Shown here: piece after piece, positions 1,623-39,676 of the stretch | Position numbering within the stretch: position 1 is the stretch's first letter | Layout of the letters: the number at the start of each line of letters is the position of its first letter | DNA from: an uncultured Lachnospiraceae bacterium | Lineage (GTDB): Bacteria > Bacillota > Clostridia > Christensenellales > Pumilibacteraceae | Length of the DNA: 64,000 nt | Direction: 5' to 3' | Assembly: GCA_964591125.1 (NCBI GenBank) | Contig: CAZQAC010000001.1 | Span: 24,674 to 88,673, forward strand | Made by a program: the position numbers and the translations under genes | The notes under the pieces: model-generated | Seen by the model: only the letters and a program-made list of their open reading frames with translations | Told to the model about the DNA's origin: nothing | Databases searched by the model: none

Positions 1623-2510
1623 TCAGTGTCGCAACCTCATTACTTTTGCGATAACAAGCCAAATCAGATTTGCGATAACAATAGGAACATAACATAGCGT
1701 CGATATAACAGCCAATATAATAGCCCACAAAATCGAAATCAAAGGCAAAGCCAAAAGAGTCGAAAAGAGAAAAACATATTGAGGTTGATATATTTTGTAA
1801 TTAGAAGCATAACTTTTATTGCTTTTTCCTATTTCAAGATTTTCATTGAAAATATCAAAAATCATATTCCAAAGACCGATATAATATTGTTTTGCCGCAT
1901 AAGAAAACTGCGATAATTCCACAGACGCGGTAAAATCAAAAGCGAACATCTCGCCTATATAATCTTTTTTCGTGTTTTTGACCGACCAAAAAACGGAATA
2001 AAAACAAGCAAACAAAAATGCTATTGTAAAATATGCAAGCAAAGCGCCGACAATGATTTGAGCAAAGAATAAAAAAATCATAATTTGCAAACCGATAACG
2101 CCGATTACAATCGCCGTACCCAAAACAACTACCGCGACAGCAACCATAAACCACATCCAACGCTTAGGCGACAACAGCCTGTATTGCCCCGATTTTGCCA
2201 ATGCATTCGAAGCAACCGACATATTTTCTTTAAACGAATATTTCGACGCAACCAAAATAATCGTTACCCAACGTTTTAATAAAGCCCAAAACGAATGAAT
2301 TTCGCATCCGCTTAATTCCCTTACTGCAACGACAAAAGACTTTACATAAACAATGAGCGCGTAAATTGCGGCGATTCCTACTCCCACCGCAAGAAATACG
2401 CTCAAGACCATCAAGCCTATAGAAGAAAATATAGCCGATACAAAAATTAATATAATGATGGTAACTAATATACTGGATAAAATATTTCCGAATAGTTTTC
2501 TGCCAAACAT
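1623..2510 (-). CDS. Polytopic membrane protein (about 6-8 TM); last gene of the Hsp70/GTPase operon
   Basis: ORF 1623..2522 begins at a TTG. The ATG at 2510 (MFGRKLF) has GAGG 6 nt upstream and lies 8 nt after the stop of the 89-aa gene. Long hydrophobic segments throughout. No family motif recognised. Confidence 0.75.
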   Translation of the reverse strand: MFGRKLFGNILSSILVTIIILIFVSAIFSSIGLMVLSVFLAVGVGIAAIYALIVYVKSFVVAVRELSGCEIHSFWALLKRWVTIILVASKYSFKENMSVASNALAKSGQYRLLSPKRWMWFMVAVAVVVLGTAIVIGVIGLQIMIFLFFAQIIVGALLAYFTIAFLFACFYSVFWSVKNTKKDYIGEMFAFDFTASVELSQFSYAAKQYYIGLWNMIFDIFNENLEIGKSNKSYASNYKIYQPQYVFLFSTLLALPLISILWAIILAVISTLCYVPIVIANLIWLVIAKVMRLRH

Positions 2511-2518
2511 TTTTCGCC

Positions 2519-2788
2519 TCAATATAATAATTGCAACAGTTTATTCCAAAACTTTTCATTTGCTTCGATAAGAGCTTTTTTACCGCTTTTCAAAACAATG
2601 GAAATAATATACTTACTTTTCATAATGCCGGAAGTTTGATTAACGATTTCATATTTCGAAACCGTATCTTTACTTATTTCTTCACGATTTAGGATATTCG
2701 TAAAATACAATCGCGGTTTATGCAATAAATTAAAGCTTTCGACAATATCCCAGCCCTTAAAATCTCCGGCAATTATTTTACTTTTCAT
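2519..2788 (-). CDS. Small soluble protein of unknown function (89 aa), operon member
   Basis: RBS GGAGGTG directly upstream of the ATG. Non-hydrophobic sequence that looks beta-rich. Tightly coupled to the downstream membrane protein. Confidence 0.7.
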   Translation of the reverse strand: MKSKIIAGDFKGWDIVESFNLLHKPRLYFTNILNREEISKDTVSKYEIVNQTSGIMKSKYIISIVLKSGKKALIEANEKFWNKLLQLLY

Positions 2789-2930
2789 TTTTCACCTCCG
2801 CAACGAAAACAATTCGACTCTTAAGCAATTCCTTACAATTAATCGTCGGACTCGCAACAAATTGCTAATTAATAATTCTTTGATGCACATTTCCATAAAA
2901 ATGCGGTCTTTAAGCACTATAAAATCAAAT

Positions 2931-4442
2931 TTATATACTTTTGCCCCACTTTTTTTTCAAATCTATCGATGGGCATACTTTATCGATTATCCAAAGAGCG
3001 GGCTCATAAACTCCGTTCGGAGAAAACGGAGTTCCGTCTTCGTTGTGTCCCAGCGCACTACACGTAAAGAATTGTACGCTTTTGAACTTGGACTTCAGAT
3101 TATTTAGGAAATTCTCTTCTTCATAATCTTGCAAGAATTTTTCGCAAACAACGTTCTTTGCCGCAAATTTATCCTTTATTTTTCCATCTTTCAAAAGATT
3201 TTGAACGGCTTTTTCGCCGATTAGTTCATCTATTCCGGGAATATCGCATTTATTGAATACAAGCAAAACGTCCGTTTTTAACATATCTTTTGAATTGAGG
3301 TTATACATATTCTGCAATGTGTTTACGAGAGAACTTAACACTTCGTCCATGGATTTTTGGCTAATCGTGTACGCGGTTAAATCCACGGATTTTTCTATGG
3401 ATTTTCTGTACGCGTTAATGGACAGCGGATCGACGACCATAATAAATGCTGAGGCATAACGGAAGCCGAGCTGATGCTCCAACGCAGAATTGTTATCGTA
3501 AGCTTCACCTGCCACATCACAAAAAGATATTAAATTGCGAACTTTGACTTTTTTGGGGGTTAGATAAAACTGATAATATTTTAATTTTTGATTATCCGTT
3601 TTGGGAAGACGGTGTCCTTGCTCCAATGCCATTTTGTTATCGGCGTAATCGTCATCGAGCAAATCGTTATTAATGTATTCAAAAACAAGATCGTTTTCGG
3701 AAGCTTTTTTTTCGAGCTCGCTAATAGCCATATTAATGAAGCATGATTTACCCGAACCCGTTCCGCCGACTACCGGAATACACCTGTCTACTTGCAAACC
3801 GTTAGAATGAAGTTCGTATTCACAATGCGGGCAAATCCATTTACCGGGCAACTTATGACGTCCGTTAAGAAAGGTCGTCGGCAATACTCTGCCGCATTCG
3901 CATTTTCGATGCATTATTCCGTAGCGACTCGGAACAAGATTCGTATGAATCGCGCCGCACTCGCATACATATGCCGGCAACGCGTATTTTCTTTGACAAT
4001 TCGGACAACTGGTAGATATGTTTTTAATATGATTATATAAAAAGTCGATAAATTTAACGATAACAAAGTATATATATGTAAACAAAAAGAAAACACTTAA
4101 AATTATCGTATGCAATACCGACATAATCGCCGTAACGACAATGGTTATCAAAGTTCCGCCAACCAATTTAAATAGAAAAAACGAAAATTTTATAAGAGAC
4201 CAAATGCCGCTAAAAAATTCCGACCATTCGAAATCGTCTCCGCTTAGACCGAAAGAAATGCATTTTTGGAACAAATACCCGACATGCTTTAATTTTTGCA
4301 AGCCCAACAACGCAAGCCCCAATTGAGCCGCAGAAGTTTTCATATGCCCTACGCATCTTTGAAAAGCATTTTTTATTGTGTTTACAAATTCAACATATCC
4401 GCCTTTAAAGAAATAATTTATAAATGCAGGTTGTTTTTTCAT
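2931..4442 (-). CDS. Membrane-anchored zinc-ribbon P-loop GTPase (TRAFAC-type motifs)
   Basis: 503 aa with RBS AGGAGA. N-terminal ~130 aa is hydrophobic (2-4 TM). Cysteine pairs CPNC..CECG..CECG..CPHC indicate two zinc ribbons. GTPase motifs: G1 GGTGSGKS, G3 DVAG, G4 NKCD, G5 CSALG. Confidence 0.85.
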   Translation of the reverse strand: MKKQPAFINYFFKGGYVEFVNTIKNAFQRCVGHMKTSAAQLGLALLGLQKLKHVGYLFQKCISFGLSGDDFEWSEFFSGIWSLIKFSFFLFKLVGGTLITIVVTAIMSVLHTIILSVFFLFTYIYFVIVKFIDFLYNHIKNISTSCPNCQRKYALPAYVCECGAIHTNLVPSRYGIMHRKCECGRVLPTTFLNGRHKLPGKWICPHCEYELHSNGLQVDRCIPVVGGTGSGKSCFINMAISELEKKASENDLVFEYINNDLLDDDYADNKMALEQGHRLPKTDNQKLKYYQFYLTPKKVKVRNLISFCDVAGEAYDNNSALEHQLGFRYASAFIMVVDPLSINAYRKSIEKSVDLTAYTISQKSMDEVLSSLVNTLQNMYNLNSKDMLKTDVLLVFNKCDIPGIDELIGEKAVQNLLKDGKIKDKFAAKNVVCEKFLQDYEEENFLNNLKSKFKSVQFFTCSALGHNEDGTPFSPNGVYEPALWIIDKVCPSIDLKKKWGKSI

Positions 4443-4458
4443 TGATTTTTTCTCCTAA

Positions 4459-4662
4459 CTACTGTCTGAGTTTAACTTGCGAGAACAATGCGGCAAAATA
4501 GTTTTTAACACCCATAACAGCTCCCAAAAACATGCCGATAATCGCCCCGCCGACAAAAGTCAAAAAACAAATATACAATACTATACAAAAACCGGCTATT
4601 ACCGCCGCAATATATAATAACGTAAATGCAATTTGAAATAACGAATCTAAAAAACCTTCCAT
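4459..4662 (-). CDS. Small two-TM membrane protein (67 aa), operon member
   Basis: RBS GGAGGTG upstream. Almost entirely hydrophobic (two helices). Gaps of 16-18 nt to both neighbours. Confidence 0.7.
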   Translation of the reverse strand: MEGFLDSLFQIAFTLLYIAAVIAGFCIVLYICFLTFVGGAIIGMFLGAVMGVKNYFAALFSQVKLRQ

Positions 4663-4680
4663 CTTTCACCTCCAATAATA

Positions 4681-7449
4681 TTAATCGTCGTCTTTATTTG
4701 TTTTATCTTTTTTTCCGAATCCGAAAATCTGAGAGAAAAAGCCTCCGCCTTCCTTTTTGTCTTTCTCTTTCTTATCGTTGTTTTTCTTTTTTTCTTCTTT
4801 TTTATTGACAAAACCTAACTGTTCCGTGAAAATTTGTATATTTTGCTTAAATTGTTCCGGAACCGACGAAAGAATATCGCCAATTAATCTCTCTGCCTTT
4901 TTTCTGTTGGAAAAACTGCCTATATAATAATTAAGAAGCCCCCTCAAATCATCGGCAAAGCTATAATGATAATTGCAAGCAAATACAAACATATCGGATA
5001 ACAAAATCATACTGTTCTTCGTATTAGATTTTGCCATTACATTCATAAATTCGCTTTTGAAATACCTACTTTTTATAAGTTCGCTAAATAATAAAGTCAA
5101 AACCCTCATATTATTATTGCAAATATAGTCATCGTTTTTTTCATTGGAGTTTTGCACGGTGCGATAATTTAAATAAATGTTAACTATAACGCAAAGATAA
5201 TTTGCGACCAATTCGTCTATTTGCCTTTCGTTAAGAATCGGAGTTACGAACGAATTGTATTGTATTAACTTTTCAACGAACCAGACGGTAGCCTCTTTGC
5301 TCCCCTCAGCCGTCTTTAGATTTTGTATTAAATCGACATAATTTCTTTTCGGATCGAGTTCGATGCGGTTATTATATAATTTACTGTCTAAATCCTTTCT
5401 AAGCGACGTTTCTTGCGCGGAATATTGAAGTATGTATTCCGCAGACGGCTCATACATTTTTTTGTGAATGTAAAGCAATACGTCTTTCATATCTCCCCGA
5501 TTAATATCCACGCCGGTACGACATATATCCGAATATATTTCAAAACAACTTTTTTCGTTAGGAGAATGTGCCAAATAGTACTTAAGCTTTTCTAAATACA
5601 ACCCTCTATCAAAGCCTTTAAGATAATAATTATTAAAATAATTATTTAAATCGGATCTGACGATATTGTTATTTACGCTGAACGCATATGTTTCGCGAAT
5701 TATTTTGAAATTAGAAAATCTCTGCTCTCGTATAAGTTCGTTTTCGAGCGCCGAATAAAGCGAAGGGTTGTTGTTATAATATTTCGTATACTCCGAAATA
5801 AAATGCGAAGATTGCTCATTCATTTCAACCACTCGTTTAAGTATTTCAAGCTGTAACGATTGAGATTTTACCGCTTCTATAAAAAAGAACATCATACGAT
5901 TATTATTTTCGGCGTTATCGAATCGACATATCGTGTCCAAAATTAGTTTTTCTGCAAGCTTGCCCGAAACCGAATACGCTTCGGAAAGAAGTGTATTAAC
6001 TTCTTTAACTGTCTTTTCATTTGAATAAAAGACAAAAATATACAGCATAACCGAATAAATTTTATCAGAACCCGAGTGCGATAATTCTTTAAGAAGAGTC
6101 ACATAAATCAAATTATTCCATCTAAAATCGTTTTGACTCGCAAAACCCGCAGCAAAACTGTTTTGCGCTACAAGATATTGTAAAAATTCGCTTGCAGAAA
6201 ACGGTGCAGCCGAAAAAAACGATTCGACATATTCCAAAGCGTCCGCCGATGACGACGCATAATTTTCAATATGCGAAATATAATAATCTATTAGATTTTT
6301 TCTTATCGCCGTATCTCCGTATCGATACATCCGTTTAAGAAGAGCCGCCGAAATCGTCACATCATTCCATTTTTTCTGAACAAAATACGAACTATAAATG
6401 TTGCTAACCGCATCATTGGGCGTTAAAATGTTATATTTTTCGGCAATATTGTTAGTTTCGATAAATTCATCGAAATTCGAAAACCACTGAACTCGATTAT
6501 TTTTAAGCATAAACAACGGAACTGCCTGCTCACGATTGCAATCGTATGCGTTACAGAGATTATCGATTTCGTTAACGTATTCCAACGCTTCGAGAAGACT
6601 TTTACCGAGAGCGTCGCGAATTCCGGCAATATACGCATCTAAAGAAATGCTTGCGATTATGTTTTTTGTTAAGTCAAAAATCGGTTGGCTTGTCGAAAAC
6701 GACGACACGGCTACATTTCGAATTGTAAGAGGTTTTGCTCCGGATAACCCGCTCGACGCATTAAAATTATTAACCGCGGCTATCTTAGAACCGAACGTTA
6801 CTTTTTCGCGCAACTGAGGAGGAAGAAACAATCCTATTGCGGTATACCATAATTCCAAATTGGCGTCGGTGTCGATCAAAACAACGGAACTGTCAGTATT
6901 CGCCGCATTTATAACAGCCTGCAACAATATAGGAAAACTCTGTTTTCTTTCGGCTGTCAAAAAAGCTTCGACTTCCCGAAAGTTCAACGCGTCGGGTTGA
7001 ATATCTATTTGCGGAAGCGTTTCCGGACAAGGGTTGTCATGCCATTCGACAAATTCCAACTTACTTTTAAATTTATTTTTGTTTAAAAACGACATCGGAA
7101 ACATTTCGCCCAAACTGTCGAAAACATAAGCATGTATAAAAAAGTTGCCCCATCGCGTATCCTGACCGTATTCCGTTTTGCCGCTATAAACCCTACCTAT
7201 GAAATTTGATTCCGCCAAAACTTTTTTGCCCGTTGACAACACAAAATAAGCGTATTTCGTCGGACACGCTTTTTTTATTTCTTCTTCTGACGCCTCGTAA
7301 AGATTAACACCCGAAGGGTTCTTATACGTCATAAGTTGATGAATTTCTTCACCTTCCGCATCGGTAATATCCGCCGTTTTCGACCAAACGGTAAAATCGC
7401 CGTTTTTTTGTTTTCCGCATGCCGTAAATATATACTGAGAAACTAACAT
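4681..7449 (-). CDS. Large (922 aa) alpha-helical protein of unknown function with a Lys/Glu/Asp-rich C-terminal tail
   Basis: Uninterrupted 922-aa ORF with RBS GGAGGAGGA. I recognise no catalytic motif. C-terminus is KKEEKKKNNDKKEKDKKEGGGFFSQIFGFGKKDKTNKDDD. Confidence 0.85.
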   Translation of the reverse strand: MLVSQYIFTACGKQKNGDFTVWSKTADITDAEGEEIHQLMTYKNPSGVNLYEASEEEIKKACPTKYAYFVLSTGKKVLAESNFIGRVYSGKTEYGQDTRWGNFFIHAYVFDSLGEMFPMSFLNKNKFKSKLEFVEWHDNPCPETLPQIDIQPDALNFREVEAFLTAERKQSFPILLQAVINAANTDSSVVLIDTDANLELWYTAIGLFLPPQLREKVTFGSKIAAVNNFNASSGLSGAKPLTIRNVAVSSFSTSQPIFDLTKNIIASISLDAYIAGIRDALGKSLLEALEYVNEIDNLCNAYDCNREQAVPLFMLKNNRVQWFSNFDEFIETNNIAEKYNILTPNDAVSNIYSSYFVQKKWNDVTISAALLKRMYRYGDTAIRKNLIDYYISHIENYASSSADALEYVESFFSAAPFSASEFLQYLVAQNSFAAGFASQNDFRWNNLIYVTLLKELSHSGSDKIYSVMLYIFVFYSNEKTVKEVNTLLSEAYSVSGKLAEKLILDTICRFDNAENNNRMMFFFIEAVKSQSLQLEILKRVVEMNEQSSHFISEYTKYYNNNPSLYSALENELIREQRFSNFKIIRETYAFSVNNNIVRSDLNNYFNNYYLKGFDRGLYLEKLKYYLAHSPNEKSCFEIYSDICRTGVDINRGDMKDVLLYIHKKMYEPSAEYILQYSAQETSLRKDLDSKLYNNRIELDPKRNYVDLIQNLKTAEGSKEATVWFVEKLIQYNSFVTPILNERQIDELVANYLCVIVNIYLNYRTVQNSNEKNDDYICNNNMRVLTLLFSELIKSRYFKSEFMNVMAKSNTKNSMILLSDMFVFACNYHYSFADDLRGLLNYYIGSFSNRKKAERLIGDILSSVPEQFKQNIQIFTEQLGFVNKKEEKKKNNDKKEKDKKEGGGFFSQIFGFGKKDKTNKDDD

Positions 7450-7465
7450 GGTATCCTCCTCCCCT

Positions 7466-8596
7466 TTATCTTTTAACTTTCTTTATATAATTTTTTTCCG
7501 CAAACAACCACAATAGCGGATCCAAAACGCGATGCGGCTGTATTTGAGAACCGGAAATTTTCATATCGTTAGGAACATCACCTAATGCGCTTACACCGAA
7601 TAGCGAATATTTCTCAAAATTTTTCATACATTGAAGCACTTCGCCCTCAAGCCAATGCGAAAGCAAATCTTCAAGCTCGGTATTGACGCTTTCTTGATCT
7701 TGAAGAACGAAAACTCCGCGTTTTAAATGTTCGGATTCGCTTGCGACCGCATAATCGTTTCTGATTACGCCATATTTAATAAGCGCGTCTATTTTTGTGA
7801 AAACGACAGCTAACGGCGTTTTTATGTTGCCCTTTGTCTTTTTGACGTTTTTAATGTTGGTCACTATTCGATTTAATATTTCTACAACGTCGGTATTTTG
7901 CGGCGGTAAATTCATTTTTCCTTTAAGTTTTTCTCTAACCGGAGGTAATTGTAAAGGATCCAAAAGTAAAATAATACCGTCGGCATTAGGTATATAACGA
8001 TTAAAATGTATCATATTTTCCGCGTTGTCAAGATTTTCTCCCGCGGTATCGTAAAATGTAAGCGAAGCGGTATTTTTAATTCTGTTTTTATTATCCATAA
8101 AATTAATGGGAAACAGTAACGGCGGTATAACTCCGCTATCCGTTGCGGAAATGACATATCCGTCTACAAATAACGGTTTATAATAGTTTTCGTCATAATA
8201 ACGTTTAGATTCTTCGCTACAACAAATATTCAGCGAGCAATTAAAACTGTGCGACATTTTACGCTTGATTTCGTTTACGAGCACGCCTATGTAATTGGAT
8301 TTTCCCGAAGCTTTTGCTCCGACAAGCGCAATGGTCATACCGTTATTGGTTAAATAATCTCTCGGAATAACTTTTTCACTTTCTTTAAATTCGGGACAAT
8401 AGATATATAAGCTGGCTTCTTTGCAATTAAGGCATTTGCTTTTGCTTGTTTTTGGGATATACATCGACGGAATCTCTTTTTTTACTCCGGATGCGCAGAC
8501 TTCACGCGTTTGTCCGTTCATGTTATCGGAACATCTCATGTCACATTCCAATAATTCGTGTTTTCCGTAGCAATAAGGGCAAGTAAATTTGGGCAT
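7466..8596 (-). CDS. Soluble zinc-ribbon P-loop GTPase, paralog of 2931..4442
   Basis: Start placed at ATG 8596 (MPKFTCPYC, RBS AAGGAGA) instead of the ORF-track 8650. N-terminal CPYC..C..C and CLNC..C cysteines. GTPase motifs: G1 GAKASGKS, G3 DTAG, G4 TKID, G5 VSALG. Confidence 0.85.
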   Translation of the reverse strand: MPKFTCPYCYGKHELLECDMRCSDNMNGQTREVCASGVKKEIPSMYIPKTSKSKCLNCKEASLYIYCPEFKESEKVIPRDYLTNNGMTIALVGAKASGKSNYIGVLVNEIKRKMSHSFNCSLNICCSEESKRYYDENYYKPLFVDGYVISATDSGVIPPLLFPINFMDNKNRIKNTASLTFYDTAGENLDNAENMIHFNRYIPNADGIILLLDPLQLPPVREKLKGKMNLPPQNTDVVEILNRIVTNIKNVKKTKGNIKTPLAVVFTKIDALIKYGVIRNDYAVASESEHLKRGVFVLQDQESVNTELEDLLSHWLEGEVLQCMKNFEKYSLFGVSALGDVPNDMKISGSQIQPHRVLDPLLWLFAEKNYIKKVKR

Positions 8597-8613
8597 ATAA
8601 AATTCTCCTTTCT

Positions 8614-11600
8614 TTAAAGTGTATTGACTTCTCGAAGTCTTACGTCGCATTTCTCGTCGGATACAAATATATTAAATTTCATATTCTTTGCAGTCGGAGC
8701 GAGCTTAACCGTATATTTTCCCGTATATTTATTTGAGAAAAAGCCTTTCTTCAACTGTATCGGCTCGATACGTTCAACAAGTTCTCCTTCCGTTTTATCG
8801 ATCGGACGAGGATATCCTTTTATTAAAAGCAAAGAAGGTATCGTAACTTCGGAATTTGCTTCGAATAAAATATTTAATTTAAATTGTTTTAACGCCGAAA
8901 CAGAATAATCGAGTTTATAATGAACGAATACTTTTTCTCTTTCGCCCAAAACTTCATCTATCACAAACGGCTGAGAATAAGATAAAATTCCGTTTAATCT
9001 AAATTCAGAAAAAACCGAAACGTAACTCAGCGTATTTGCTTTTAGTTTTAATTCAGCTTTGCCGTCTCGAACAAAATCGACGCGTTTATATCTAAAACAT
9101 TCGCCGTCATCCTCCATCGTTTTCGGGAAAGCTTTGTTGCTCACTTTCAAAACTAAATTTTCGGCTTTTTCGTTTATATTGCCCTTAACAACAAGCGAAC
9201 CCGACAGCAACTCGTATTCGAGCGCCTGACCTTTTATTGTATTGAAAACAATCGGCTCCGAAATTATAAATAATTGCTCGTTTTGAGCAACCGGATACAA
9301 CCAACCGATTTTTCCTTCGGGCAGATTAACAAGAGTATTTCCTTCTATATCCACAGACGTAGATAATTTCGTTAAACCTTTCGCCACCGTGCCAAAATCC
9401 GCAAGCCTCTGCGTTTTATTATACGGTAACGGTTGTTTGCTCTCGGAATAAAACATGCTTATCGCGTTAGCATTTTCGTCGCTGTTAAAAATATACTGGT
9501 TTCCGTGTGCAAATGTAATTCTTGCGTTTGTAATTTTATTTAATACTTTAAACGGGGTAAATACCGATCTGATACCTCGCGACAATATCTCATTTCCGTC
9601 GACGACGTATTCGCAAACAATTAAATATGCCGCTTCTCCCGAAACGTCGTAATCGGCAAAACCGGACAAATCGCAAGAAACAGATTCGCCGTCACCGATC
9701 TTCTCGGGGGCGATATTGCCTCTCTTCTTAAACACTTTGACAGCCTTGACGTTTTGCGGAGCTTTCCAGGTAACTTTTATACAATCATTAACTATTTCTT
9801 GATGGATCTGAGTAACCTCGGCGTAAATAATCGGCGCTTGAGTTGTAACTAATTTAGATTTAATTCCGCAACGATCGGCAAAAACCGCATAATAATATTT
9901 AGTCGCCGGAACGACTGCGAGATCTTCATAAAACATGATCGACAAATTTTCGGCAACAATCGATCCGTCATCCGGTCCGGTCGGACATACGCCTATTTTT
10001 TTAATTATCGTAAAACTTACGTTTTCCTGCGCAGCCGTAACCGACCATTCTATTTTCATGGAATTGCCGGAAATAAAAGTTCGCACTGAAGTCGGCGCAT
10101 TAGGAGGATATTTCTTTAAGATTGCTCTCGATTCTTCACAATCTTCGCATAATTCGTTAACTTTTACAGCATTCGCGATTGCCGTTTTAGAATCGTTTTT
10201 TTCCGCAGCCCCTTTTGCTATAGTAAGAAATTGACGAATCTTGCTCAGTTCCGTAGAAATCGAAGAAAGAAAAGCTGCCGTGCTGTTTGCATTATAGGTC
10301 AAATATTTTTGTTTTAACGTTTTTGCCAAAGCTTCCGCCGAAAAAAGCTTTTTTTCGGCAATGAGCTTCTTCAATTTTGCTTCGTCTTCTCGATAAGATT
10401 TACCTAGTTTTTCCTCTACCGCTTTAAGATTTTTAATCGAGTCTTCATAGCTTTTTATTTTCTTGCTTACAACCGAATTGGGCTTTGACAAATAATCGGG
10501 AAGAATATTACACAATTCAAGAAACGCGTTATCGAGTTTGGAAATATTCGGTTGCGATTGACTTAATAAAGCATCGATTTCGCTTGATTTTTGCTGCAAT
10601 TTTTCTTCCGTTTGCTTGGCGGCTCCGCAACTCGGACAAGTTTGCTTGTCTTTGGAATAAGCCATTCTTTCACCGCAATTCCAGCAAATGATTTCAAGAG
10701 GTTTACCGCAGTGAGGACAGCTTTTTGCGCCTTTTTTATAAATTTTGTTACAGTACGGACATGTATCGAAATTGCTCTCGTCTTCCTTGCCACTTACAAA
10801 CAACTTATAATAATTACAACCTACGGAAAGTATTTTTTCGGCTTCGTCAACGGTTACGCCAAGCGCGTCCACGGCAACCTGAACAAACTCCTCGTATTCT
10901 TCCATGGAAAGATTAAGACCGTAAACGTTTTTAAGTTTAAACTTTTCCCATATACTGTCTTTTAATTTTAAATAATAATCATAATTAGACCGATATTTTG
11001 CATCTTTATTTAGCAACAATTGCGTCATACTTCCGCACAGTCCGCTTATAGCTTGTTTTAATTTTAAATCGGCTGTTTTTGAAGCATTCGAATTCGCGGT
11101 TTTTATGGCAGCGGATATTTCGTCGCTTGTGGCATTAGCTTTAACCCCCAAAAACTCATATAAATCTCGCTTCTTTACCACTTTTAACATGTCTTCAACT
11201 TCTTTATATTTATTAAAAGGCATGCTTTTATCGATATTATCTATTATTTTAATACCTTGCTGCTGCAAATAATCGATTTTTGTTTTCAGCTCATCTAACG
11301 TAAAATAATTATTGGCTGCATGGCGAATGTTTTCCAAATCGCTAACCAAAATAAACTTTCGATTGGATTTCGTGCACATATCCTGAATTATTTCCACCGC
11401 TTCCGAAAGCTTGAATTCTTTTGCACGAGCAGCTTCCTCTTTACGAGCGCCTTTTTTCGGTTCGTAAACTTCACCGTTTAATTTAGCGTCGTTGCACATT
11501 ACTTCAAGAATATTTTCTCTAAGCTCCAAAAGTCGTTTTTTGTGCAAGTTAGTACCGCTGGCATCCCCAAGTATTGTTTTTACTTTTTGCTCGATATTCT

Positions 11601-11697
11601 TCGAATTGGTTTCAGTAATATCGAAAGCAAATGCAATAAAATAATTAAACTTCGGATCTTTTAATTCTTCCGCAGTTCTTTGTGCATGAACAGCCAT
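8614..11697 (-). CDS. 1027-aa multidomain protein: J-domain-like segment (no HPD), double zinc ribbon, coiled-coil region, beta-rich (Ig/FN3-like) C-terminal half
   Basis: RBS AGAGGAG. Residues ~177-240 (KKRDLYEFLGVKANATSDEISAAIK...) resemble J-domain helices I-II. Residues 313-357 are CPYC..CPHC..CWNC..CPSC. The C-terminal ~480 aa is rich in short beta-strand patterns. Confidence 0.8.
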   Translation of the reverse strand: MAVHAQRTAEELKDPKFNYFIAFAFDITETNSKNIEQKVKTILGDASGTNLHKKRLLELRENILEVMCNDAKLNGEVYEPKKGARKEEAARAKEFKLSEAVEIIQDMCTKSNRKFILVSDLENIRHAANNYFTLDELKTKIDYLQQQGIKIIDNIDKSMPFNKYKEVEDMLKVVKKRDLYEFLGVKANATSDEISAAIKTANSNASKTADLKLKQAISGLCGSMTQLLLNKDAKYRSNYDYYLKLKDSIWEKFKLKNVYGLNLSMEEYEEFVQVAVDALGVTVDEAEKILSVGCNYYKLFVSGKEDESNFDTCPYCNKIYKKGAKSCPHCGKPLEIICWNCGERMAYSKDKQTCPSCGAAKQTEEKLQQKSSEIDALLSQSQPNISKLDNAFLELCNILPDYLSKPNSVVSKKIKSYEDSIKNLKAVEEKLGKSYREDEAKLKKLIAEKKLFSAEALAKTLKQKYLTYNANSTAAFLSSISTELSKIRQFLTIAKGAAEKNDSKTAIANAVKVNELCEDCEESRAILKKYPPNAPTSVRTFISGNSMKIEWSVTAAQENVSFTIIKKIGVCPTGPDDGSIVAENLSIMFYEDLAVVPATKYYYAVFADRCGIKSKLVTTQAPIIYAEVTQIHQEIVNDCIKVTWKAPQNVKAVKVFKKRGNIAPEKIGDGESVSCDLSGFADYDVSGEAAYLIVCEYVVDGNEILSRGIRSVFTPFKVLNKITNARITFAHGNQYIFNSDENANAISMFYSESKQPLPYNKTQRLADFGTVAKGLTKLSTSVDIEGNTLVNLPEGKIGWLYPVAQNEQLFIISEPIVFNTIKGQALEYELLSGSLVVKGNINEKAENLVLKVSNKAFPKTMEDDGECFRYKRVDFVRDGKAELKLKANTLSYVSVFSEFRLNGILSYSQPFVIDEVLGEREKVFVHYKLDYSVSALKQFKLNILFEANSEVTIPSLLLIKGYPRPIDKTEGELVERIEPIQLKKGFFSNKYTGKYTVKLAPTAKNMKFNIFVSDEKCDVRLREVNTL

Positions 11698-11740
11698 GTT
11701 TTAACTCCTCTTTTGTATTTTGATTGTTTTTGGGGTTCGT

Positions 11741-14131
11741 TTAGAATTTAAATTTATTACCCAAAAAATTAGAATTCTTCAATTTTTGTTCTTTATGATA
11801 ACCAAATCTTTCAACGTTTGCAAGCCAAGCCGCAGCATTAACGACATATCTGTCCGTCCCCGCACTCTCCCATTTGCAATAAAGTCGAGTATAACCGCCA
11901 TCCGCCAACACGCGTCTTCCGTTATCGTCGCAACAAGCCGTAACTACGCCCAGATCGGAGCCGTATACCAAAGGCTTTAATATGCTTGTCGTATGCACGT
12001 CCGCGATTGTTTCTCCTTCATAAAAGTTTACCAATCCCGTTGTTATCGGATGATTTTCTATAATTCCGGGTTGTCCCGCCGTGTGCTGTATCGATATAAC
12101 CTTGCATCCGTGTAAATTACCGTCCATATATGTTCCGAACAATCTATCCAAAATAGCATTTGCATCCACATACCACGGATCATTGTCGCCCCACAAGTAA
12201 ATGCCGTGACCTTTTTGATAATAATCGTAAATAAGCTCTAAACATCTGTCGTCAATGTGACGCTTTACTCCGGAGATTACCCATAATTGAGAATCAGGTT
12301 CCGACAAAATACTTTTCAAAGACAAATACGATGGCGTTTCGCTATATTCTTGCACTTCAAAGCCTTTTCTTGCCAATGCAACTTTGGGCTTTCCCATAAT
12401 ATCATCATAAGTTCCGCTTGTTCCGTCATTGCCGAAATTCAAAACGATAATTTTATAGCCCTTAAACGCTCCGTCTTTCGCAAGATCGAATTCTCCGCCT
12501 TGCGGATTGCCGTATCGGTCGGTTGTAGTCGAAGGTATGTTGCTGATTCCCGCCCATTGAGTGTACGGGGTATTCATCGCTTGTTTATATTCTGCTTCCA
12601 ATTTATCGCAAATAGAATCCAAAGATTCCGTAATACTTACTCTTTGCACAGGCAAAGGGTTTCCGTTAGAATCTTTGGCGGTAACTTCCACAACGCCGTT
12701 TTGGTTGTATAAAAACGCAACCGAAAAATCATTTTGAACCCCTTTTTTCAGGTTGCTTAAGACATATTTATCCAAAAGCAAACATTCGTAAGGATTTTCG
12801 GATTCGCCTTGCAAAACATAAATCTCGGTAGAATCACTTTTGACGTTATACTTCTTTTCTTTTGCAATGCCGATTTTACTGTTTTTTTCAAGTATAATGC
12901 TGTTTATAAATTTAACACTCGTTTCGCTTATAGCCGAAGTAGCAAGCAATCCGAGACTGTGCGCGGTTATGTCTTTAATGTCGGAATTGTGAATAGTCAA
13001 AGCCATCGGTTGACTGCTTCCGTTTTTGGACGGTCCCATCAAAGTAATTACGTTGTTTACGCAAAGTTCGGCTTGCATTGCCGCACCGGTCGCAACAATC
13101 GTATCAACGTTTATATCTTTGGTTACAGGCGCTTTTCCGTATTCTTTTATAATCCTTTCTTTTACTTGCGGCATTCTCGTCGAACCGCCCACAAGCACGA
13201 CTTCGTCGATGTCTTTCCAACCGAAAGGACGTTGTTGTTGAACACTAATTTCTTCGAAACACCTATCTATAAGCAAAAAGGTTTCGTTTAATAAGCTTTC
13301 CGTTCTTTCTTCGAACATTTCCTTCGTAACTTCGTATTTTCCGCTACAACCTTCGCACGATGCCTGTATCAACGTTGTTGCAACCGACGAAAGTCTTTTT
13401 TTGGCATCTTCGCATTTAACCTGTAACTCTTTGAAATCATCCGAATGAGAACGAATGTCGATGCCGAACTCCGAATAAAATTGATCAATAACTTCGTTGA
13501 TCAAAACATCGTCCCAATTCATTCCGCCCAATTGATGATTACCGTTGGTTGCCGTTACGTTTATACCTGTTCCTTCAACGTGCGCGATAGTTACGTCAAA
13601 CGTACCTCCGCCGAGATCGTATACCATTACGTTTTTATTTTTATCGCCTGTCAAACCGTACGCGATTATTGCCGAAGTAGGTTCGTTGATAATTTTCAAC
13701 ACGTTCAATCCCGCTTTTTGAGCCGCACGCATTGTTGCTTCTCTTTGCTTATTGTCAAAATAAGCCGGAACGGTTATTACGGCGTTTTCGATCGTCACAT
13801 CGTTTGTTTGTTCGATATCCTTCTTCAATTCAGAAAGAAAAAGTCCTGACAAATCTTCTGCAGAATATTCCGTATCTTCCAAATATGCGCTATAACACGG
13901 GTTACACATCATGCTCTTATAAAAAGCAGCTGTATTTATATTACCGGATTTCTGTTCGTTTTTTGCGTCTTCACCAATCAACACGTTTCCGTTATCTAAG
14001 CACACAACAGACGGCGTTGTTTCTTTGCCCAAACTGTTTTTTAATACTTCGACACGATTATTTTGTTTAGAAAATACCGCTACAGCCGAATAAGTTGTTC
14101 CGAGATCTATTCCGACGTTTATTTTTTTCAT
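11741..14131 (-). CDS. Hsp70/DnaK-family ATPase with a ~260-aa non-canonical C-terminal extension
   Basis: Start at ATG 14131 ([24 protein letters not shown]); the ORF-track start 14143 is a TTG. Hsp70 signatures present: [30 protein letters not shown]. The C-terminal ~260 aa is unlike an Hsp70 lid. Confidence 0.9.
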   Translation of the reverse strand: MKKINVGIDLGTTYSAVAVFSKQNNRVEVLKNSLGKETTPSVVCLDNGNVLIGEDAKNEQKSGNINTAAFYKSMMCNPCYSAYLEDTEYSAEDLSGLFLSELKKDIEQTNDVTIENAVITVPAYFDNKQREATMRAAQKAGLNVLKIINEPTSAIIAYGLTGDKNKNVMVYDLGGGTFDVTIAHVEGTGINVTATNGNHQLGGMNWDDVLINEVIDQFYSEFGIDIRSHSDDFKELQVKCEDAKKRLSSVATTLIQASCEGCSGKYEVTKEMFEERTESLLNETFLLIDRCFEEISVQQQRPFGWKDIDEVVLVGGSTRMPQVKERIIKEYGKAPVTKDINVDTIVATGAAMQAELCVNNVITLMGPSKNGSSQPMALTIHNSDIKDITAHSLGLLATSAISETSVKFINSIILEKNSKIGIAKEKKYNVKSDSTEIYVLQGESENPYECLLLDKYVLSNLKKGVQNDFSVAFLYNQNGVVEVTAKDSNGNPLPVQRVSITESLDSICDKLEAEYKQAMNTPYTQWAGISNIPSTTTDRYGNPQGGEFDLAKDGAFKGYKIIVLNFGNDGTSGTYDDIMGKPKVALARKGFEVQEYSETPSYLSLKSILSEPDSQLWVISGVKRHIDDRCLELIYDYYQKGHGIYLWGDNDPWYVDANAILDRLFGTYMDGNLHGCKVISIQHTAGQPGIIENHPITTGLVNFYEGETIADVHTTSILKPLVYGSDLGVVTACCDDNGRRVLADGGYTRLYCKWESAGTDRYVVNAAAWLANVERFGYHKEQKLKNSNFLGNKFKF

Positions 14132-14162
14132 TTTTTTCTCCAATGTTTTTAACTAAAAGAGC

Positions 14163-14221
14163 AGGCTGCAAAACGATTTTACGATGATTACGATAATTCG
14201 GTAAAATATTTTTTGCAGCCT
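14163..14221 (-). promoter_or_regulatory. Intra-operon stem-loop in the 212-nt gap between the two Hsp70 genes (possible attenuator, partial terminator or processing site)
   Basis: aggctgcaaaa (14163-14173) pairs perfectly with ttttgcagcct (14211-14221), with a 37-nt loop. On the minus strand the stem is followed by gctcttttag. No classic U-run. Confidence 0.3.
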
Positions 14222-14343
14222 TGCCGATTTTAGTACGACTTTTTATTGTTAAGGTTAAAAAGATAAATAATTATAACTTTTTTCGATACATTACAAAACC
14301 GATAGCCGACGTCACGATTTTCACCGCAACGAAAATTATCAAA

Positions 14344-16002
14344 TTATTTTAATGTCATAGCGGAAACCGCAGCCATACCTTCTTGATTAGACTCTTCGCT
14401 CTTAAGTCTCGGATGCATTTCATATGTTTTATTGTTTTTCAAATCCGTCAATTTAAGAGTAATCAAACTATTTGCGTCAACATTCATCTCTATCGAAACC
14501 GGCGTATTTCCGGGAACCGAATTTTCAAGCTTAATAGGCTCTTCCGCATAAATCTCATTACATATATCAAGTTCCACAACTCTTTCGAGACTATCGCTTT
14601 CAAGAACAAGGATTTCTATCGAATCGATAGGCGTAGGGTCATTGGAAAACACCAACGAAAAATAATCCGCAGATGCACCGTAGGCCGGTTTTTGCGTATC
14701 TTTTATAATCAAATTGAGAACTTTATTCCTTTGAGCTTTTTGATCAAAAAAACGGAATCCGTAAGATTTTGTTACGTTTTCTATGAATTCGGTGTTTCCG
14801 ATTTTCGTTCCGCCGTTTTCGGTAGTCTCTATCAAAGAAAGAACGTTCGATAACGCGGAACCGGATTCCTGCGAAAGCGATTCGAGTATTTCTCCGTTTT
14901 CGTTTTGGAAAGAATATTCGTTGGCAACAAGAGCCGCGCCCATCGCAACAGCTTTATTGGGTTCGTACTGAGCAAGCGGTTTACCATATTCTTGTTCAAG
15001 CTTTTTCGATACCTGCGGCATATAAGTAGAACCGCCTACAAGAATAATTTCGTCGATATCGTTTATGCTCATGCTTTTTGCCGCTAACATTTCATTCACA
15101 AGCAATATGGTTTCTTCAAGCTTGCCGGATGTAACCTCGTCGAATTCTTGACGGGTTACCTCTATTTTCTGTCTTTGACCGTCGAAACTCGGAGTTAAAG
15201 ACGTCGATTCGCGGCTCGTAAGCATCTTCTTTGCTTTTTCGATATTTTCCGAAAACCAAGCGACGCACTCCGGATCGTTTTTCATTTCTGTCTCATCGCA
15301 ACCGGTTTCTTCGCAGAATTTTTCTCGAACGAGGTTTGCAAAAGCTTCGTCCCAATCCTTTCCGCCAAGCTGATGATTTCCGCCGGTCGTAATAACGCTG
15401 ACCGTTTTTTCTCCGCTCGCGATTTTAAGCTTCATAACCGTACAGTCGAACGTACCGCCGCCGAGATCGTATATAAGAACAGTTTTGTCCATGTCCTCCT
15501 TTCTCGAATCGGCATATGCGATTGCAGCCGAAGTCGGCTCGTCCAATATTCTGAGTACGTTTAATTTTTTTCCGTTTGAAAGTTCGACGTTTTCGCCGGC
15601 GAATTTAGTAGCGTTCTTTGCTTCGACTCCGAAATAAGCAGGAACTGTTATTACGGCACCGTCAATCTCTTCGCCTATGGCACTTTCCGCATCGGCAATC
15701 AACTTCTTCAAAATCAATGTCGAAACAGCCGCAGACGAATATTCCGTTCCGTTTGCAAAGAAACGATAATCAGCATTACCCATAAAGTTTTTTACTCTTT
15801 CGCAAAGACAGTCAGGATTCATTGCGCCTTCCGCTCTTGCCGTAGAACCAACAACCGCGCTTCCGTCCGGATCGAAATAAACGACCGAAGGAGTAGTTTG
15901 CTCGCCCTCCATATTGTCCACTATTCTTAAAACTCCGTTGTCATCGACATAGCTTACGCAAGAATACGTAGTTCCCAAATCTATTCCTATTTTCTTACTC
16001 AT
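14344..16002 (-). CDS. Hsp70/DnaK-family ATPase (552 aa, truncated substrate-binding region)
   Basis: RBS AAGGAGA. Signatures [31 protein letters not shown]. About 60-90 aa shorter than canonical DnaK and lacks the helical lid and EEVD-type tail. Confidence 0.9.
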
Positions 16003-16034
16003 AAATTTTTTCTCCTTATGAAATAATTAACTTT

Positions 16035-16322
16035 TTAACTTTTGTTTGCTTCGTTCCAAAGCTTATCGTATTCGTCAAACACCGCATCTATTACGGCATC
16101 GTCAAGCTCTATTTCAAAACTACTTTCGCCGTTTTTCTGCGTTACTTTAAAAACCAACGCTTCGTCTTCGTCCATGCCTTCAAGTAGTTCTACAGGTTGC
16201 AATATAGCATAAAAATCGCCTCGATATTGTATCCCGGCAATCTCTATAAAATCTATATCTTCGCCATTTGCACTTTTTAACGTAACAATATCGTCTTCAC
16301 AATAATCATGATCAGCAATCAT
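16035..16322 (-). CDS. DUF1292-like small acidic protein (95 aa)
   Basis: Start at ATG 16322 (MIADHDY, RBS GGAGAAGG); the ORF-track start 16343 is a TTG. Pattern IVTL..NGEDIDFIEIAGIQY..FYAILQPV...ALVFKV is typical of DUF1292. Confidence 0.75.
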   Translation of the reverse strand: MIADHDYCEDDIVTLKSANGEDIDFIEIAGIQYRGDFYAILQPVELLEGMDEDEALVFKVTQKNGESSFEIELDDAVIDAVFDEYDKLWNEANKS

Positions 16323-16355
16323 TGTCCTTCTCCTATTTTCCAAACCGTTTAGTCG

Positions 16356-16868
16356 TCATTTTTTCCAAGTTTTTTTAATTTTCCTAAAAACTCGCCGCAT
16401 TATAAGGAACGAAATCAATCCGCCTACTGCGCTAAACAAAGCAATACCGATCCCGCCAGAGACAAGAAGAACTATTGCCGAAACAGAATTAAAAACAAAA
16501 AAAACCGCGCTGATTATTAATATTACGCTCAAAAAAATGGTTTTTAAGCCTTTCCCAGCTGTTTTCGTGGCAACATGAGCTGTTTCTGCAAACGTGTTTT
16601 GCTCATTTTTAATTTTCTTGTTACCCGACTGATTTATAAGTTTATCATATTCTAAGAACACTGCGTCCAAAACGTTTTCGTCGCGTTCGAGCAGATAATT
16701 ATTTTTTCCGTTTTCATACAATACTTTGTAAACCGAAATTTTCTCGTCTCCGTTTACAGATCTTAATATTGCATAAAATTCGTCTCGATATTGTATCCAA
16801 GCTAACTTTACAAAATCGACCGATTCGCCGTATTCGTTTTTTATTGTAATAATATCATCATCAGCCAT
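16356..16868 (-). CDS. DUF1292-like domain fused to a C-terminal two-TM anchor (170 aa)
   Basis: RBS AGGTGA. N-terminal IITIKNEYGESVDFVKLAWIQYRDEFYAILRSV. The C-terminal 60 aa is hydrophobic, followed by a basic tail (RRVFRKIKKTWKK). Confidence 0.75.
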   Translation of the reverse strand: MADDDIITIKNEYGESVDFVKLAWIQYRDEFYAILRSVNGDEKISVYKVLYENGKNNYLLERDENVLDAVFLEYDKLINQSGNKKIKNEQNTFAETAHVATKTAGKGLKTIFLSVILIISAVFFVFNSVSAIVLLVSGGIGIALFSAVGGLISFLIMRRVFRKIKKTWKK

Positions 16869-16914
16869 TATTTTTCACCTAAAATTGATAAAGTTTAAAT
16901 TGATGTTACTAAAA

Positions 16915-17457
16915 TTATTTTTTCGATATAGTCTTAATAAACTTTTTAAGCGACCAACGTCCGACTAAAAACGAAATTACTCCGAAAATCGCGCAACCGA
17001 GCAATTGCGAAAAATCAAACGGATCGCATCCGTCTTGTACCGAAACGCATGCCGCAATAAAAACGACGGCGCATTGGAATGTAATTGCGCCCCATAAAAC
17101 AGCCATAACGATTTTCGAAGTTTTCTTTGCCGCCGCTTGAATATTATTAAAGGCGTTTCCCTTGCCTTGCGATTTTTTGACTTTGCCGCCGTTGTTAGAT
17201 GCGTTCCAAAGCTTATCGTATTCCTTGAACACCGCATCTATCACGCTATCGTCAAGCTCTATTTCAAAACTCTCTTCGCCGTTTTTCTGCGTTACTTTAA
17301 AAACCAACGCCTCGTCGTCTCCCATGCCTTCAAGAAGCTTGACGGGTTGCAATATAGCGTAAATATTGCCTTTGTATTGTATTGCGGCTATTTTTTCAAA
17401 ATCGATATTTTCGCCGTTCGCGCTTACTAAAGTGATTATGTTATCGTTATTTGCCAT
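16915..17457 (-). CDS. DUF1292-like domain fused to a C-terminal two-TM anchor (180 aa)
   Basis: RBS GGAGAA. N-terminal IITLVSANGENIDFEKIAAIQYKGNIYAILQPV. Hydrophobic C-terminus with a basic tail. About 165 bp of its DNA is ~89% identical to 16035..16322. Confidence 0.75.
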   Translation of the reverse strand: MANNDNIITLVSANGENIDFEKIAAIQYKGNIYAILQPVKLLEGMGDDEALVFKVTQKNGEESFEIELDDSVIDAVFKEYDKLWNASNNGGKVKKSQGKGNAFNNIQAAAKKTSKIVMAVLWGAITFQCAVVFIAACVSVQDGCDPFDFSQLLGCAIFGVISFLVGRWSLKKFIKTISKK

Positions 17458-17490
17458 CTTTCCAATTCTCCAAAATATTTTTAATTTTTA

Positions 17491-18552
17491 TTATCCTCGC
17501 ACTTTACAAACATCTACTTTTGCAGGATAAATCACTTTATCGTCCGATTTGTACAAATCGGTATAAACCTTAACAATCTTTCCGTTCTTTTCTGCTTCGT
17601 CGGAAGAAATCGGAATAAACTTCATTATCCGATGCAGTTTCGGCTCATAAGTATCTCCCGCGGCAAGCGCGTGTTCTACAGTAACTTGGCATAAATTCAA
17701 AACCGTTTCGGTTTGATCTAAAACCATACGAAGAATGTTTTTATACATTTCCGTCAGTTCGGACAAATCCGCTTCGTCGGACCGAGCGACAATCGCGTCT
17801 ATATCGTTTTTTGTTTTAATATAATATCCTACAAGTTGTCTGATAACCGGATAAAGCACGACTTGCTGTATATTACGCTCGGTGAGCGAGGATAGCTTAA
17901 TATACTCCCCAACTACAATATCAAGCATCGCGTTATCTTTTAAAAGAGATTTTATTTCTTCCGTCTTTTTATCAAATAAAGAAATGACGTCGCTCTGAGA
18001 ATAGCTTACGTTTTCCGAAATAGGTGCGACGTCTTCGTTCTGGGTTTCAGGAATAGGAGCAGAAAACGGTTGCACTCCGACGATCTCCGTCGCATTTATA
18101 TCGACGCCGTTTAAAATAACGGAACTTTCATTTACTTCTACGCCGATATTTTGCAATAACATCTCGTATTCGTCGGGAATATACAACAAATATTTCACGA
18201 TAGATTCTTTTTTTAATTCATATTGACCTGCATCTCTTAACGATTTAGCGCAATCTTCACGAAAATTAATAATATTCTGCGCAATCGATTTAAACAACTG
18301 CTTGCTGTAATCGTTTCTGTATTTTTGCAATTCGCTGTTCATTTTATAAAGATTCGCGTCTTTTTCTTTTACGATTTTTATAACGTTGCGAATATTAACA
18401 AACCAACCGTTAATAAGCTTTGCGAGATCTTCGTTCGGTATTTGTTGCACGCAAGAAGAATTTTTTTCGACGTTTGCAGTTTCATTCGAATTTACCGAAT
18501 CTTTTTCGTTTAAATCAAGCGATTCCTCTTGATTGATATCCGTATTTTCCAT
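17491..18552 (-). CDS. GrpE-like nucleotide exchange factor with a long acidic/coiled-coil N-terminal extension; first gene of the operon
   Basis: RBS GGAGGA. The C-terminal segment GDTYEPKLHRIMKFIP...GKIVKVYTDLYKSDDKVIYPAKVDVCKV matches the GrpE beta-domain pattern (G..FDP..H.A...V...GY....V.RPA.V.V.K). Confidence 0.7.
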   Translation of the reverse strand: MENTDINQEESLDLNEKDSVNSNETANVEKNSSCVQQIPNEDLAKLINGWFVNIRNVIKIVKEKDANLYKMNSELQKYRNDYSKQLFKSIAQNIINFREDCAKSLRDAGQYELKKESIVKYLLYIPDEYEMLLQNIGVEVNESSVILNGVDINATEIVGVQPFSAPIPETQNEDVAPISENVSYSQSDVISLFDKKTEEIKSLLKDNAMLDIVVGEYIKLSSLTERNIQQVVLYPVIRQLVGYYIKTKNDIDAIVARSDEADLSELTEMYKNILRMVLDQTETVLNLCQVTVEHALAAGDTYEPKLHRIMKFIPISSDEAEKNGKIVKVYTDLYKSDDKVIYPAKVDVCKVRG

Positions 18553-39628: not shown

Positions 39629-39676
39629 CTCATATTATTCTATTTATATGTCTTTATTATTATACTTAAAATCCGT

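Follow-up and report, generated by a model that had tools for sequence, protein, structure and literature searches.

The closest described relative of the locus analyzed here is a bacterial system that Kaur, Burroughs, Iyer, and Aravind defined computationally (eLife 2020, PMC7159879) under the name "GTPase-centric system 2, GAP1-N2 type, second theme." According to that study, the system is built on paralogous "double GTPases" from a TRAFAC family described there as new; these have a glutamate in Walker B and zinc ribbons at the N terminus, and one copy carries transmembrane (TM) helices. Its other components are GAP1, HSP70, GrpE, a further HSP70 without the peptide-binding domain, and a protein in which FNIII is joined to DnaJ. 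The paralogous copies were proposed to "function as dimers," to contact GAP1, and to act near the membrane, and a response to an invader was proposed as well; variable components were treated as a hallmark of conflict systems, and two copies were reported in only 38% of DO-GTPase systems (PMC7159879). The relevant Pfam families are PF19993, PF19975, PF20013, and PF20014, with PF19993/PF19975 representing the DO-GTPase family. In the literature that we searched, no experimental study of DO-GTPase/GAP1 systems was found; apart from the comparative-genomics work of 2020, they were mentioned only in passing. The locus considered here lies in a 64,000-nucleotide (nt) stretch from an uncultured Lachnospiraceae bacterium (contig CAZQAC010000001.1, positions 24,674 to 88,673), referred to below as the window. 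A tight run of 13 minus-strand genes at window positions 1623 to 18552 forms one operon, and four of them, within 2931 to 8596, encode a soluble GTPase of 376 amino acids (aa), a 922-aa GAP1 protein, a 67-aa membrane protein, and a membrane-anchored GTPase of 503 aa (Table 1).

We conclude that the genes of this locus almost certainly form the core of a DO-GTPase system of the GAP1-N2 type with the Hsp70/GrpE theme. They lie on a bacterial chromosome, the host of which is probably one of the Clostridia. As a discovery the locus is not novel; the system was already known and defined computationally. The operon content (GrpE, two Hsp70s, and a J-like/double-zinc-ribbon protein) agrees almost item by item with the published description. 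Shared features include a pair of paralogous TRAFAC GTPases, each with two zinc ribbons at its N terminus and a glutamate following DxxG, of which one is membrane bound; a GAP1 with an N2 domain next to a GTPase; an Hsp70, a nucleotide-binding-domain-only Hsp70, and GrpE; a large upstream protein that combines a J-like segment with a C-terminal half rich in beta structure; and a Firmicute-like host. The differences are also specific. The J-like segment in the window is without HPD, and FNIII repeats are undetected by Pfam. The GAP1-M match falls below threshold, and the C-terminal 700 residues of GAP1 are modeled as a long alpha-solenoid. GAP1 ends in an amphipathic motif like that of MinD rather than in a TM helix. 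In this clade, the anchor of the membrane GTPase is reduced and a C-terminal TM helix is missing, which is a descriptive and not a defining feature. Lastly, the full-length Hsp70 ends in about 280 unassigned aa, at the place where a vWA domain is found in other loci.

The initial annotation had described two paralogous zinc-ribbon P-loop GTPases, and all the G motifs that it quoted are present in the translations. The 503-aa protein has GGTGSGKS at residue 226, DVAGE at 309, NKCD at 397, and SALG at 462, and the soluble protein has GAKASGKS, DTAGE, TKID, and SALG. Eight conserved Cys/His zinc ligands precede the G domain in each: C146xxC149...C160xC162 and C181xC183...C204xxC207 in the membrane copy, and C6xxC9, H13, C22, C34, C55xxC58, and C67 in the soluble copy (376-aa numbering), where they are invariant or nearly so in 57 homologues. 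Alignments of 57 soluble-type and 60 membrane-type sequences show the P-loop GK[ST], the switch-I threonine (T152 in the soluble and T282 in the membrane copy), D..GE, K.D, and the zinc ligands to be invariant or nearly invariant; the D, G, and E of DxxGE are invariant in both families, and [NT]KxD is kept in both. Because the GTP-binding motifs are so well preserved, both GTPases appear to be catalytically competent. The soluble GTPase had been placed with its start at 8596, which is correct: the longest open reading frame (ORF) begins at 8650, and we prefer 8596 because of its ribosome-binding site AAAGGAGAA, the 376-aa product on record, and orthologue lengths of 372 to 376 aa.

Paralogy of the two GTPases, previously proposed from shared motifs and domain order, was borne out far beyond chance. 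The proteins align by BLASTP with 26% identity over about 300 aa (E = 6e-10), and hhalign of the two family alignments gave a probability of 99.4 and E = 3.4e-21 over 260 columns. Both exceed the Pfam DO-GTPase2 cut-off. From these comparisons we regard it as established that the two are ancient paralogues within one TRAFAC family. Homologues of the soluble GTPase number 756, precomputed PF19993 matches are on record for GTPase homologues, and the GTPases are 50 to 60% identical across hundreds of clusters. Sequence searches of PDB with both GTPase profiles returned nothing significant, and no solved relative is detectable by sequence. The AlphaFold2 model of the 503-aa protein retrieved eEFSec, EF-Tu, Ras, Rho, Arf, Rab, and G-alpha in Foldseek (E = 1e-4 to 1e-5; 12 to 15% identity), which suggests a generic TRAFAC fold and agrees with the published separate family. 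Membership among dynamin-like, septin/GIMAP-like, or translation-factor GTPases was considered and rejected, as only generic G-domain similarity was seen (12 to 15% identity, E about 1e-4).

The genes upstream of the soluble GTPase supply the chaperone side of the system. The 1027-aa protein is the "FNIII/DnaJ" component of the published system. At residue 178 is a J-like helix (DLYEFLGV), and C313 to C357 make up a double zinc ribbon; the DnaJ match of the protein (E = 0.004 over 20 positions) covers the first helix only. The HPD tripeptide occurs within the first 400 residues of just one of 48 homologues and of none of the 15 with a recognizable J-like helix, and a canonical J-protein/Hsp70 relationship was rejected on the absence of HPD. 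Pfam found no match and no FNIII repeats in the C-terminal 500 to 520 aa (approximately), and the orthologue in locus L003 (75% identical) has only faint Fn3_SaeA matches. One of the two Hsp70s, the 552-aa protein, is without a substrate-binding domain. The full Hsp70, whose 796-aa form is the product on record, ends in a region of about 280 aa without a Pfam match (residues 520 to 796, approximately; window 11741 to 12580). At the position of this region, the corresponding Hsp70 of the distant relatives L002 and L007 is fused to a vWA domain.

Relatives were compared by locus (L-numbers), and in 80 metagenome loci the ORFs were labeled with profiles built from the alignments of this analysis; partner counts refer to the 33 loci in which the soluble GTPase is followed by 5 kb or more of sequence, and upstream counts refer to the 28 with enough upstream DNA. 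The membrane GTPase and GAP1 are both present in 27 of the 33. The GTPases had been described as bracketing the 922-aa protein, and so they do in the window, but the order is not conserved among these 27 loci: 13 have the soluble GTPase followed by GAP1 and then the membrane GTPase, and because 14 have the soluble GTPase, the membrane GTPase, and then GAP1, bracketing is not a conserved feature. It is the set of components that is conserved across many metagenomic lineages. Upstream, an Hsp70 is found in 22 of the 28 loci and a nucleotide-binding-domain-only Hsp70 in 26, and GrpE-like genes are also upstream in many related loci. The closest relatives, L001 and L003 (GAP1 identity, 47 to 64%), have the same gene order down to the genes for the 67-aa, 89-aa, and approximately 296-aa proteins. 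The more distant L002, L005/6, and L007 (GAP1 identity about 26%, range 25 to 30%) keep the core of GTPase, GAP1, and membrane GTPase and differ in accessory genes; among those of distant loci are genes for a transglutaminase-core protein, a TraG/VirD4-like ATPase, and fusions of Hsp70 with vWA. Identities to L003 and L001 are 89 and 76% for the soluble GTPase, 85 and 70% for the membrane GTPase, and 64 and 47% for GAP1, and the Hsp70s are 85 to 87% identical to those of L003; the GTPases and Hsp70s thus evolve slowly and GAP1 fastest.

A TraG/VirD4-like coupling ATPase (T4SS-DNA_transf, TrwB_AAD_bind) lies between the 1027-aa homologue and the soluble GTPase in L002 (5519 to 6847) and L005/L006 (2567 to 3901 and 13153 to 14498), and the same distant systems encode the transglutaminase-core protein downstream; the window has neither. 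Named homologues are few and come from metagenome-assembled genomes (MAGs) labeled "Clostridia bacterium." A pattern-limited scan of 185,579 species-representative genomes with the single GAP1 protein found no match, and the same scan, again pattern limited, with a nine-sequence GAP1 alignment found only one fragmentary locus, in "Ca. Fibrimonas termitidis." There (L004, 492 to 3509; LIUG01000001.1, a Fibrobacterota-type termite-gut MAG), a membrane DO-GTPase directly precedes GAP1, whose gene appears truncated or frameshifted (510-aa ORF). Within L011 to L040, at least 15 distinct loci come from a single metagenome (records JGI24698J34947_*), and their soluble GTPases share only 49 to 55% identity with the query; that community harbors either many lineages or many paralogous systems side by side.

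The gene neighborhoods also bear on whether the two GTPases work as a pair. More than one membrane GTPase is present in 4 of the 27 loci. Two or three membrane DO-GTPases follow one soluble copy in L007 (three in tandem, 8395 to 13143) and also in L008, L015, L027, L038, and L051. Because such tandem membrane paralogues follow a single soluble GTPase, the arrangement suggests one common soluble subunit with alternative membrane partners. The same multiplication of membrane copies is compatible with a different view, namely, that the GTPases are not paired at all and that each acts alone or as a homodimer. The membrane copy would then be a receptor-like switch, the soluble copy would be a separate switch that serves the upstream 1027-aa/Hsp70 module, and GAP1 would be no more than their scaffold. 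The soluble gene directly follows that of the 1027-aa homologue in 25 of the 28 loci and the position of the membrane copy varies, in line with this view, and the 38% figure for two-copy systems (PMC7159879) implies that a single copy can suffice. Nevertheless, both types co-occur in 27 of 33 loci of this clade, the two copies are similarly conserved, and all catalytic motifs are kept in both; we consider independent action quite improbable. Heterodimerization at the membrane, which has already been proposed in print, is plausible.

Membrane anchoring of the 503-aa copy alone had been proposed on the basis of an N-terminal hydrophobic anchor of about 130 aa. The distinction between a membrane-anchored and a soluble copy stands, but the anchor is smaller than was claimed: the N-terminal extension is about 140 aa long, and only residues 76 to 135 (approximately) are hydrophobic. 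This block is conserved as hydrophobic and has room for two or three helices; residues 1 to 75 are polar or amphipathic and have an invariant motif of P5, A6, Y10, and F12. The AlphaFold2 model (mean predicted local distance difference test [pLDDT] score, 82) has long helices at 10 to 62 and 73 to 139, then the zinc ribbons, with small beta-hairpin elements at 157 to 203, and then the G domain. The 503-aa GTPase is integral to the membrane, and the other copy is soluble. The single hydrophobic block and the lack of a C-terminal TM helix set it apart from the membrane GTPases of the distant loci L059 to L066 and L083 to L088, which have 4 to 6 hydrophobic segments. The 67-aa protein, also described earlier as a TM protein, indeed has two hydrophobic segments by hydropathy analysis, the second of which contains the glycine-zipper sequence GGAIIGMFLGAVMG; it has a weak match to the Tim17 family. 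L001 and L003 encode orthologues at the equivalent place, L007 encodes a relative, and the protein could be a channel- or pore-type output.

The 922-aa partner had been described as a giant helical protein. This holds for an alpha-solenoid at residues 290 to 880 but not for the alpha/beta N-terminal region (1 to 260) or for the disordered charged tail. The AlphaFold2 model (nine sequences; mean pLDDT, 75) comprises a low-confidence alpha/beta N terminus, a confident solenoid, and a disordered Lys/Glu-rich tail. The GAP1-M match has E = 3e-4 and 21.4 bits, under the cut-off of 24, and Pfam finds no other family, GAP1-C included, in the C-terminal 700 residues. Because Foldseek gave only generic alpha-solenoid matches with TM-scores below 0.25, no fold was assigned from it. 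A full HMMER scan recovered relatives of GAP1 in 588 representative clusters at E ≤ 1e-3.

Near its end, GAP1 carries the tail sequence GFFSQIFGFGKK, in which G903, F904, and F909 are invariant among close relatives. A motif of the type (K/H)GFFxKLFGKKK occurs in the last 45 residues of 74 of 123 full-length GAP1 representatives (60%), compared with 4.9% of internal windows, and four further representatives of the 123 end in a TM helix instead. The motif is closely similar to the membrane-targeting sequence of Escherichia coli MinD, KGFLKRLFGG, and like it is short, lies at the very C terminus, and alternates between hydrophobic and basic residues; the GAP1 protein itself is unrelated to MinD. 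We infer that GAP1 is a peripheral membrane protein held by a MinD-like amphipathic tail. Alternatively, the tail could be a peptide that is bound by the substrate-binding domain of the system's Hsp70.

The other end of GAP1 provides a second lead. The modeled elements of the N2 domain, beta(2-9), beta(20-24), alpha(30-41), beta(66-70), beta(76-87), beta(100-110), and alpha(119-129), follow the longin order (pLDDT, 45 to 77). The top PDB matches of a 22-domain GAP1-N2 profile were to the longin domain of Ykt6, at a nonsignificant E = 0.24 to 0.28, and the best of them (E = 0.24) was aligned from beta3 to alpha2. The domain may adopt a longin-like fold, as the model weakly suggests. In MglA-MglB and in the eukaryotic longin/roadblock platforms Mon1-Ccz1, DENN, TRAPP, and Ragulator, a small alpha/beta domain docked to a Ras-like GTPase controls the nucleotide state at the membrane. 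GAP1-N2 resembles such longin platforms in its beta-beta-alpha-beta-beta-beta-alpha order, seen in a low-confidence AlphaFold2 region, and in the nonsignificant Ykt6 match (E = 0.24). The signal recognition particle and its receptor (SRP/SR; Ffh-FtsY and SR-alpha/SR-beta) offer a working analogy only, as two related GTPases, one of them at the membrane, that form a nucleotide-dependent pair. In eukaryotes, the TM-anchored GTPase of the pair is SR-beta, and what it binds on SR-alpha is the longin-like SRX domain. Ffh and FtsY, however, belong to the SIMIBI rather than the TRAFAC class and have no sequence or specific fold relationship to the GTPases of the window, and SRP/SR proteins have no zinc ribbons, GAP1, or Hsp70 partners. 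That GAP1-N2 is a longin-like platform for GTPase docking and that GAP1 is also tethered by a MinD-type amphipathic tail is, as a combined proposal, unlikely. If it were true, DO-GTPase/GAP1 would be a bacterial counterpart of the membrane switches that eukaryotes build from longin-domain regulators and small GTPases, and such a switch would control an Hsp70/GrpE machine through paired soluble and membrane-anchored GTPases. The tail motif and the longin-like order of N2 are two leads that are absent from the 2020 paper.

The mechanism that we favor is a paired GTPase switch at the membrane. The soluble GTPase would pair in a GTP-dependent manner with its membrane-fixed paralogue or, in some relatives, with one of several. 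The conserved N2 domain of GAP1 would dock on or regulate the GTPase pair while the MinD-like motif holds GAP1 at the inner membrane face, and the variable GAP1 solenoid, together with the zinc-ribbon and beta-rich 1027-aa protein, would form a sensing or adaptor surface. The switch would control outputs at the membrane, namely, the Hsp70/GrpE pair, the glycine-zipper 67-mer, and the polytopic 299-mer. Membrane proximity is indicated by the hydrophobic block of the 503-aa GTPase, the neighboring membrane proteins, and the GAP1 tail motif. Identity and mechanism taken as one statement seem to us reasonably probable; the mechanism by itself is tentative, a possibility that falls somewhat short of probable. 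The locus is compact and complete, with both GTPases apparently intact catalytically, and it provides experimental handles in the DxxGE glutamate, the zinc ribbons, the MinD-like GAP1 tail, and an HPD-less J-like segment beside two Hsp70s and GrpE. An understanding of how a paired GTPase switch communicates with a membrane-located Hsp70 machine would give access to an uncharacterized class of bacterial regulatory or immune systems.

Certain observations weigh against this reading. No enzymatic toxin-like effector is recognizable in the operon. PADLOC-DB v2 assigned no defense model to eight operon proteins, its sole match being a spurious one to CARF (E = 0.0013), and PADLOC and NCBIfam were uninformative for the core proteins. 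A scan of IMG/VR viral contigs found no relative, and the locus lies among ordinary chromosomal genes, about 35 to 50 kb from a probable replication origin. Because HPD is absent, canonical J-domain stimulation of Hsp70 is unlikely, and because the number of membrane GTPases per soluble GTPase varies from 1 to 3 across loci, a fixed 1:1 heterodimer is not guaranteed. On the strength of the missing toxin, PADLOC match, and viral relatives, together with the chromosomal, non-mobile setting, a housekeeping role fits as well as a conflict role: the same parts could constitute a membrane-associated, chaperone-coupled machine for assembly or remodeling in certain Clostridia, for example in envelope or membrane-protein quality control or in a developmental process. 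The neighboring genes are metabolic and transport genes, with no integrase or other defense genes nearby, the outputs are chaperones and membrane proteins, and the GTPases are well conserved across their clusters. Such a role is harder to reconcile with the patchy occurrence (one locus in the pattern-limited scan of species representatives), the rapid divergence of GAP1, the many distinct copies within single metagenomes, and accessory genes that vary from TraG-like ATPases and transglutaminase-core proteins to Hsp70-vWA fusions and extra membrane GTPases, the kind of variability that Kaur et al. (PMC7159879) take as a mark of conflict. We consider a housekeeping role rather unlikely, although less so than independent action of the two GTPases.

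Table 1. Genes of the 13-gene operon, in order of transcription, with the parts of the three core proteins (window coordinates)
Feature	Position (nt)	Strand	Evidence and remarks
GrpE-like protein, 353 aa (first gene)	17491-18552	minus	Pfam GrpE, E = 1.9e-10; domain at residues 251-350
DUF1292 protein, 180 aa, C-terminal hydrophobic region	16915-17457	minus	Pfam DUF1292, E = 8e-9; two hydrophobic segments; orthologue in L003
Small membrane protein, 170 aa	16356-16868	minus	Weak Pfam matches to membrane families only; two hydrophobic segments
DUF1292 protein, 102 aa	16035-16343	minus	Pfam DUF1292, E = 2.5e-7; L003 orthologue 69% identical
Hsp70, nucleotide-binding domain only, 552 aa	14344-16002	minus	Pfam HSP70, E = 2.4e-79; residues 5-363, profile positions 2-375 of 599
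Full Hsp70 (nucleotide-binding and substrate-binding domains), 796 aa from ATG at 14131	11741-14131	minus	Pfam HSP70, E = 7e-98; residues 10-507
1027-aa protein: helical N-terminal region, J-like helix, double zinc ribbon	8614-11697	minus	Pfam DZR, E = 4.6e-7; Zn_ribbon_3, E = 8e-8
Soluble DO-GTPase, 376 aa	7466-8596	minus	Pfam DO-GTPase2, E = 5e-7, 30.0 bits (cut-off 27)
 Two zinc ribbons, residues 6-67	8396-8581	minus	
 G domain, residues 87-366	7499-8338	minus	
GAP1 (GTPase-associated protein 1), 922 aa	4681-7449	minus	Pfam GAP1-N2, E = 2e-13, 51 bits (cut-off 24)
 N2 domain, residues 1-135	7045-7449	minus	
 Alpha-solenoid, residues 290-880	4810-6582	minus	
 Tail GFFSQIFGFGKK, residues 903-914	4708-4743	minus	
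67-aa membrane protein, two hydrophobic segments, glycine zipper	4459-4662	minus	Hydropathy analysis
Membrane-anchored DO-GTPase, 503 aa	2931-4442	minus	Pfam DO-GTPase2, E = 1.5e-10, 41.5 bits (cut-off 27)
 Hydrophobic block, residues 76-135	4038-4217	minus	
 Two zinc ribbons, residues 146-207	3822-4007	minus	
 G domain, residues 217-487	2982-3794	minus	
89-aa protein	2519-2788	minus	No Pfam match; orthologues in L001 and L003, 59-79% identity
299-aa polytopic membrane protein (last gene)	1623-2522	minus	Multiple hydrophobic segments; orthologues in L001, L003, L007, and L009

The spacers within the operon are mostly 12 to 46 nt, with longer ones before the 89-aa gene (142 nt) and the full Hsp70 gene (about 210 nt); the GAP1 gene begins 16 nt past the soluble GTPase gene, and in a single 4-nt overlap, the start of the 299-aa gene lies over the 89-aa gene. 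Promoter and terminator scans gave the same counts as shuffled sequence, and the operon limits were not set from them; scans of the entire window for Rfam families and tRNAs returned no hits.

Elsewhere in the window, two very large minus-strand genes at 33800 to 43336 are unrelated to the GTPase system; the product of one (1829 aa) has CarboxypepD_reg-like domains, and that of the other (1219 aa) has a CotH kinase domain. The region from 51700 to 58200 is probably a replication origin, although its arrangement is odd. A dnaA gene was not found at the expected place, nor was a DnaA-like P-loop. Four perfect DnaA boxes (TTATCCACA) and one near-perfect box are clustered at 53583 to 53688. Neither strand has an ORF of at least 70 aa at 51.7 to 54.4 kb (about 23% GC) or at 55.7 to 58.1 kb (about 30% GC); these ORF-free stretches flank parB (54423 to 55331) and end at dnaN (58239 to 59342), and the minimum of the cumulative GC skew lies near 59 kb.

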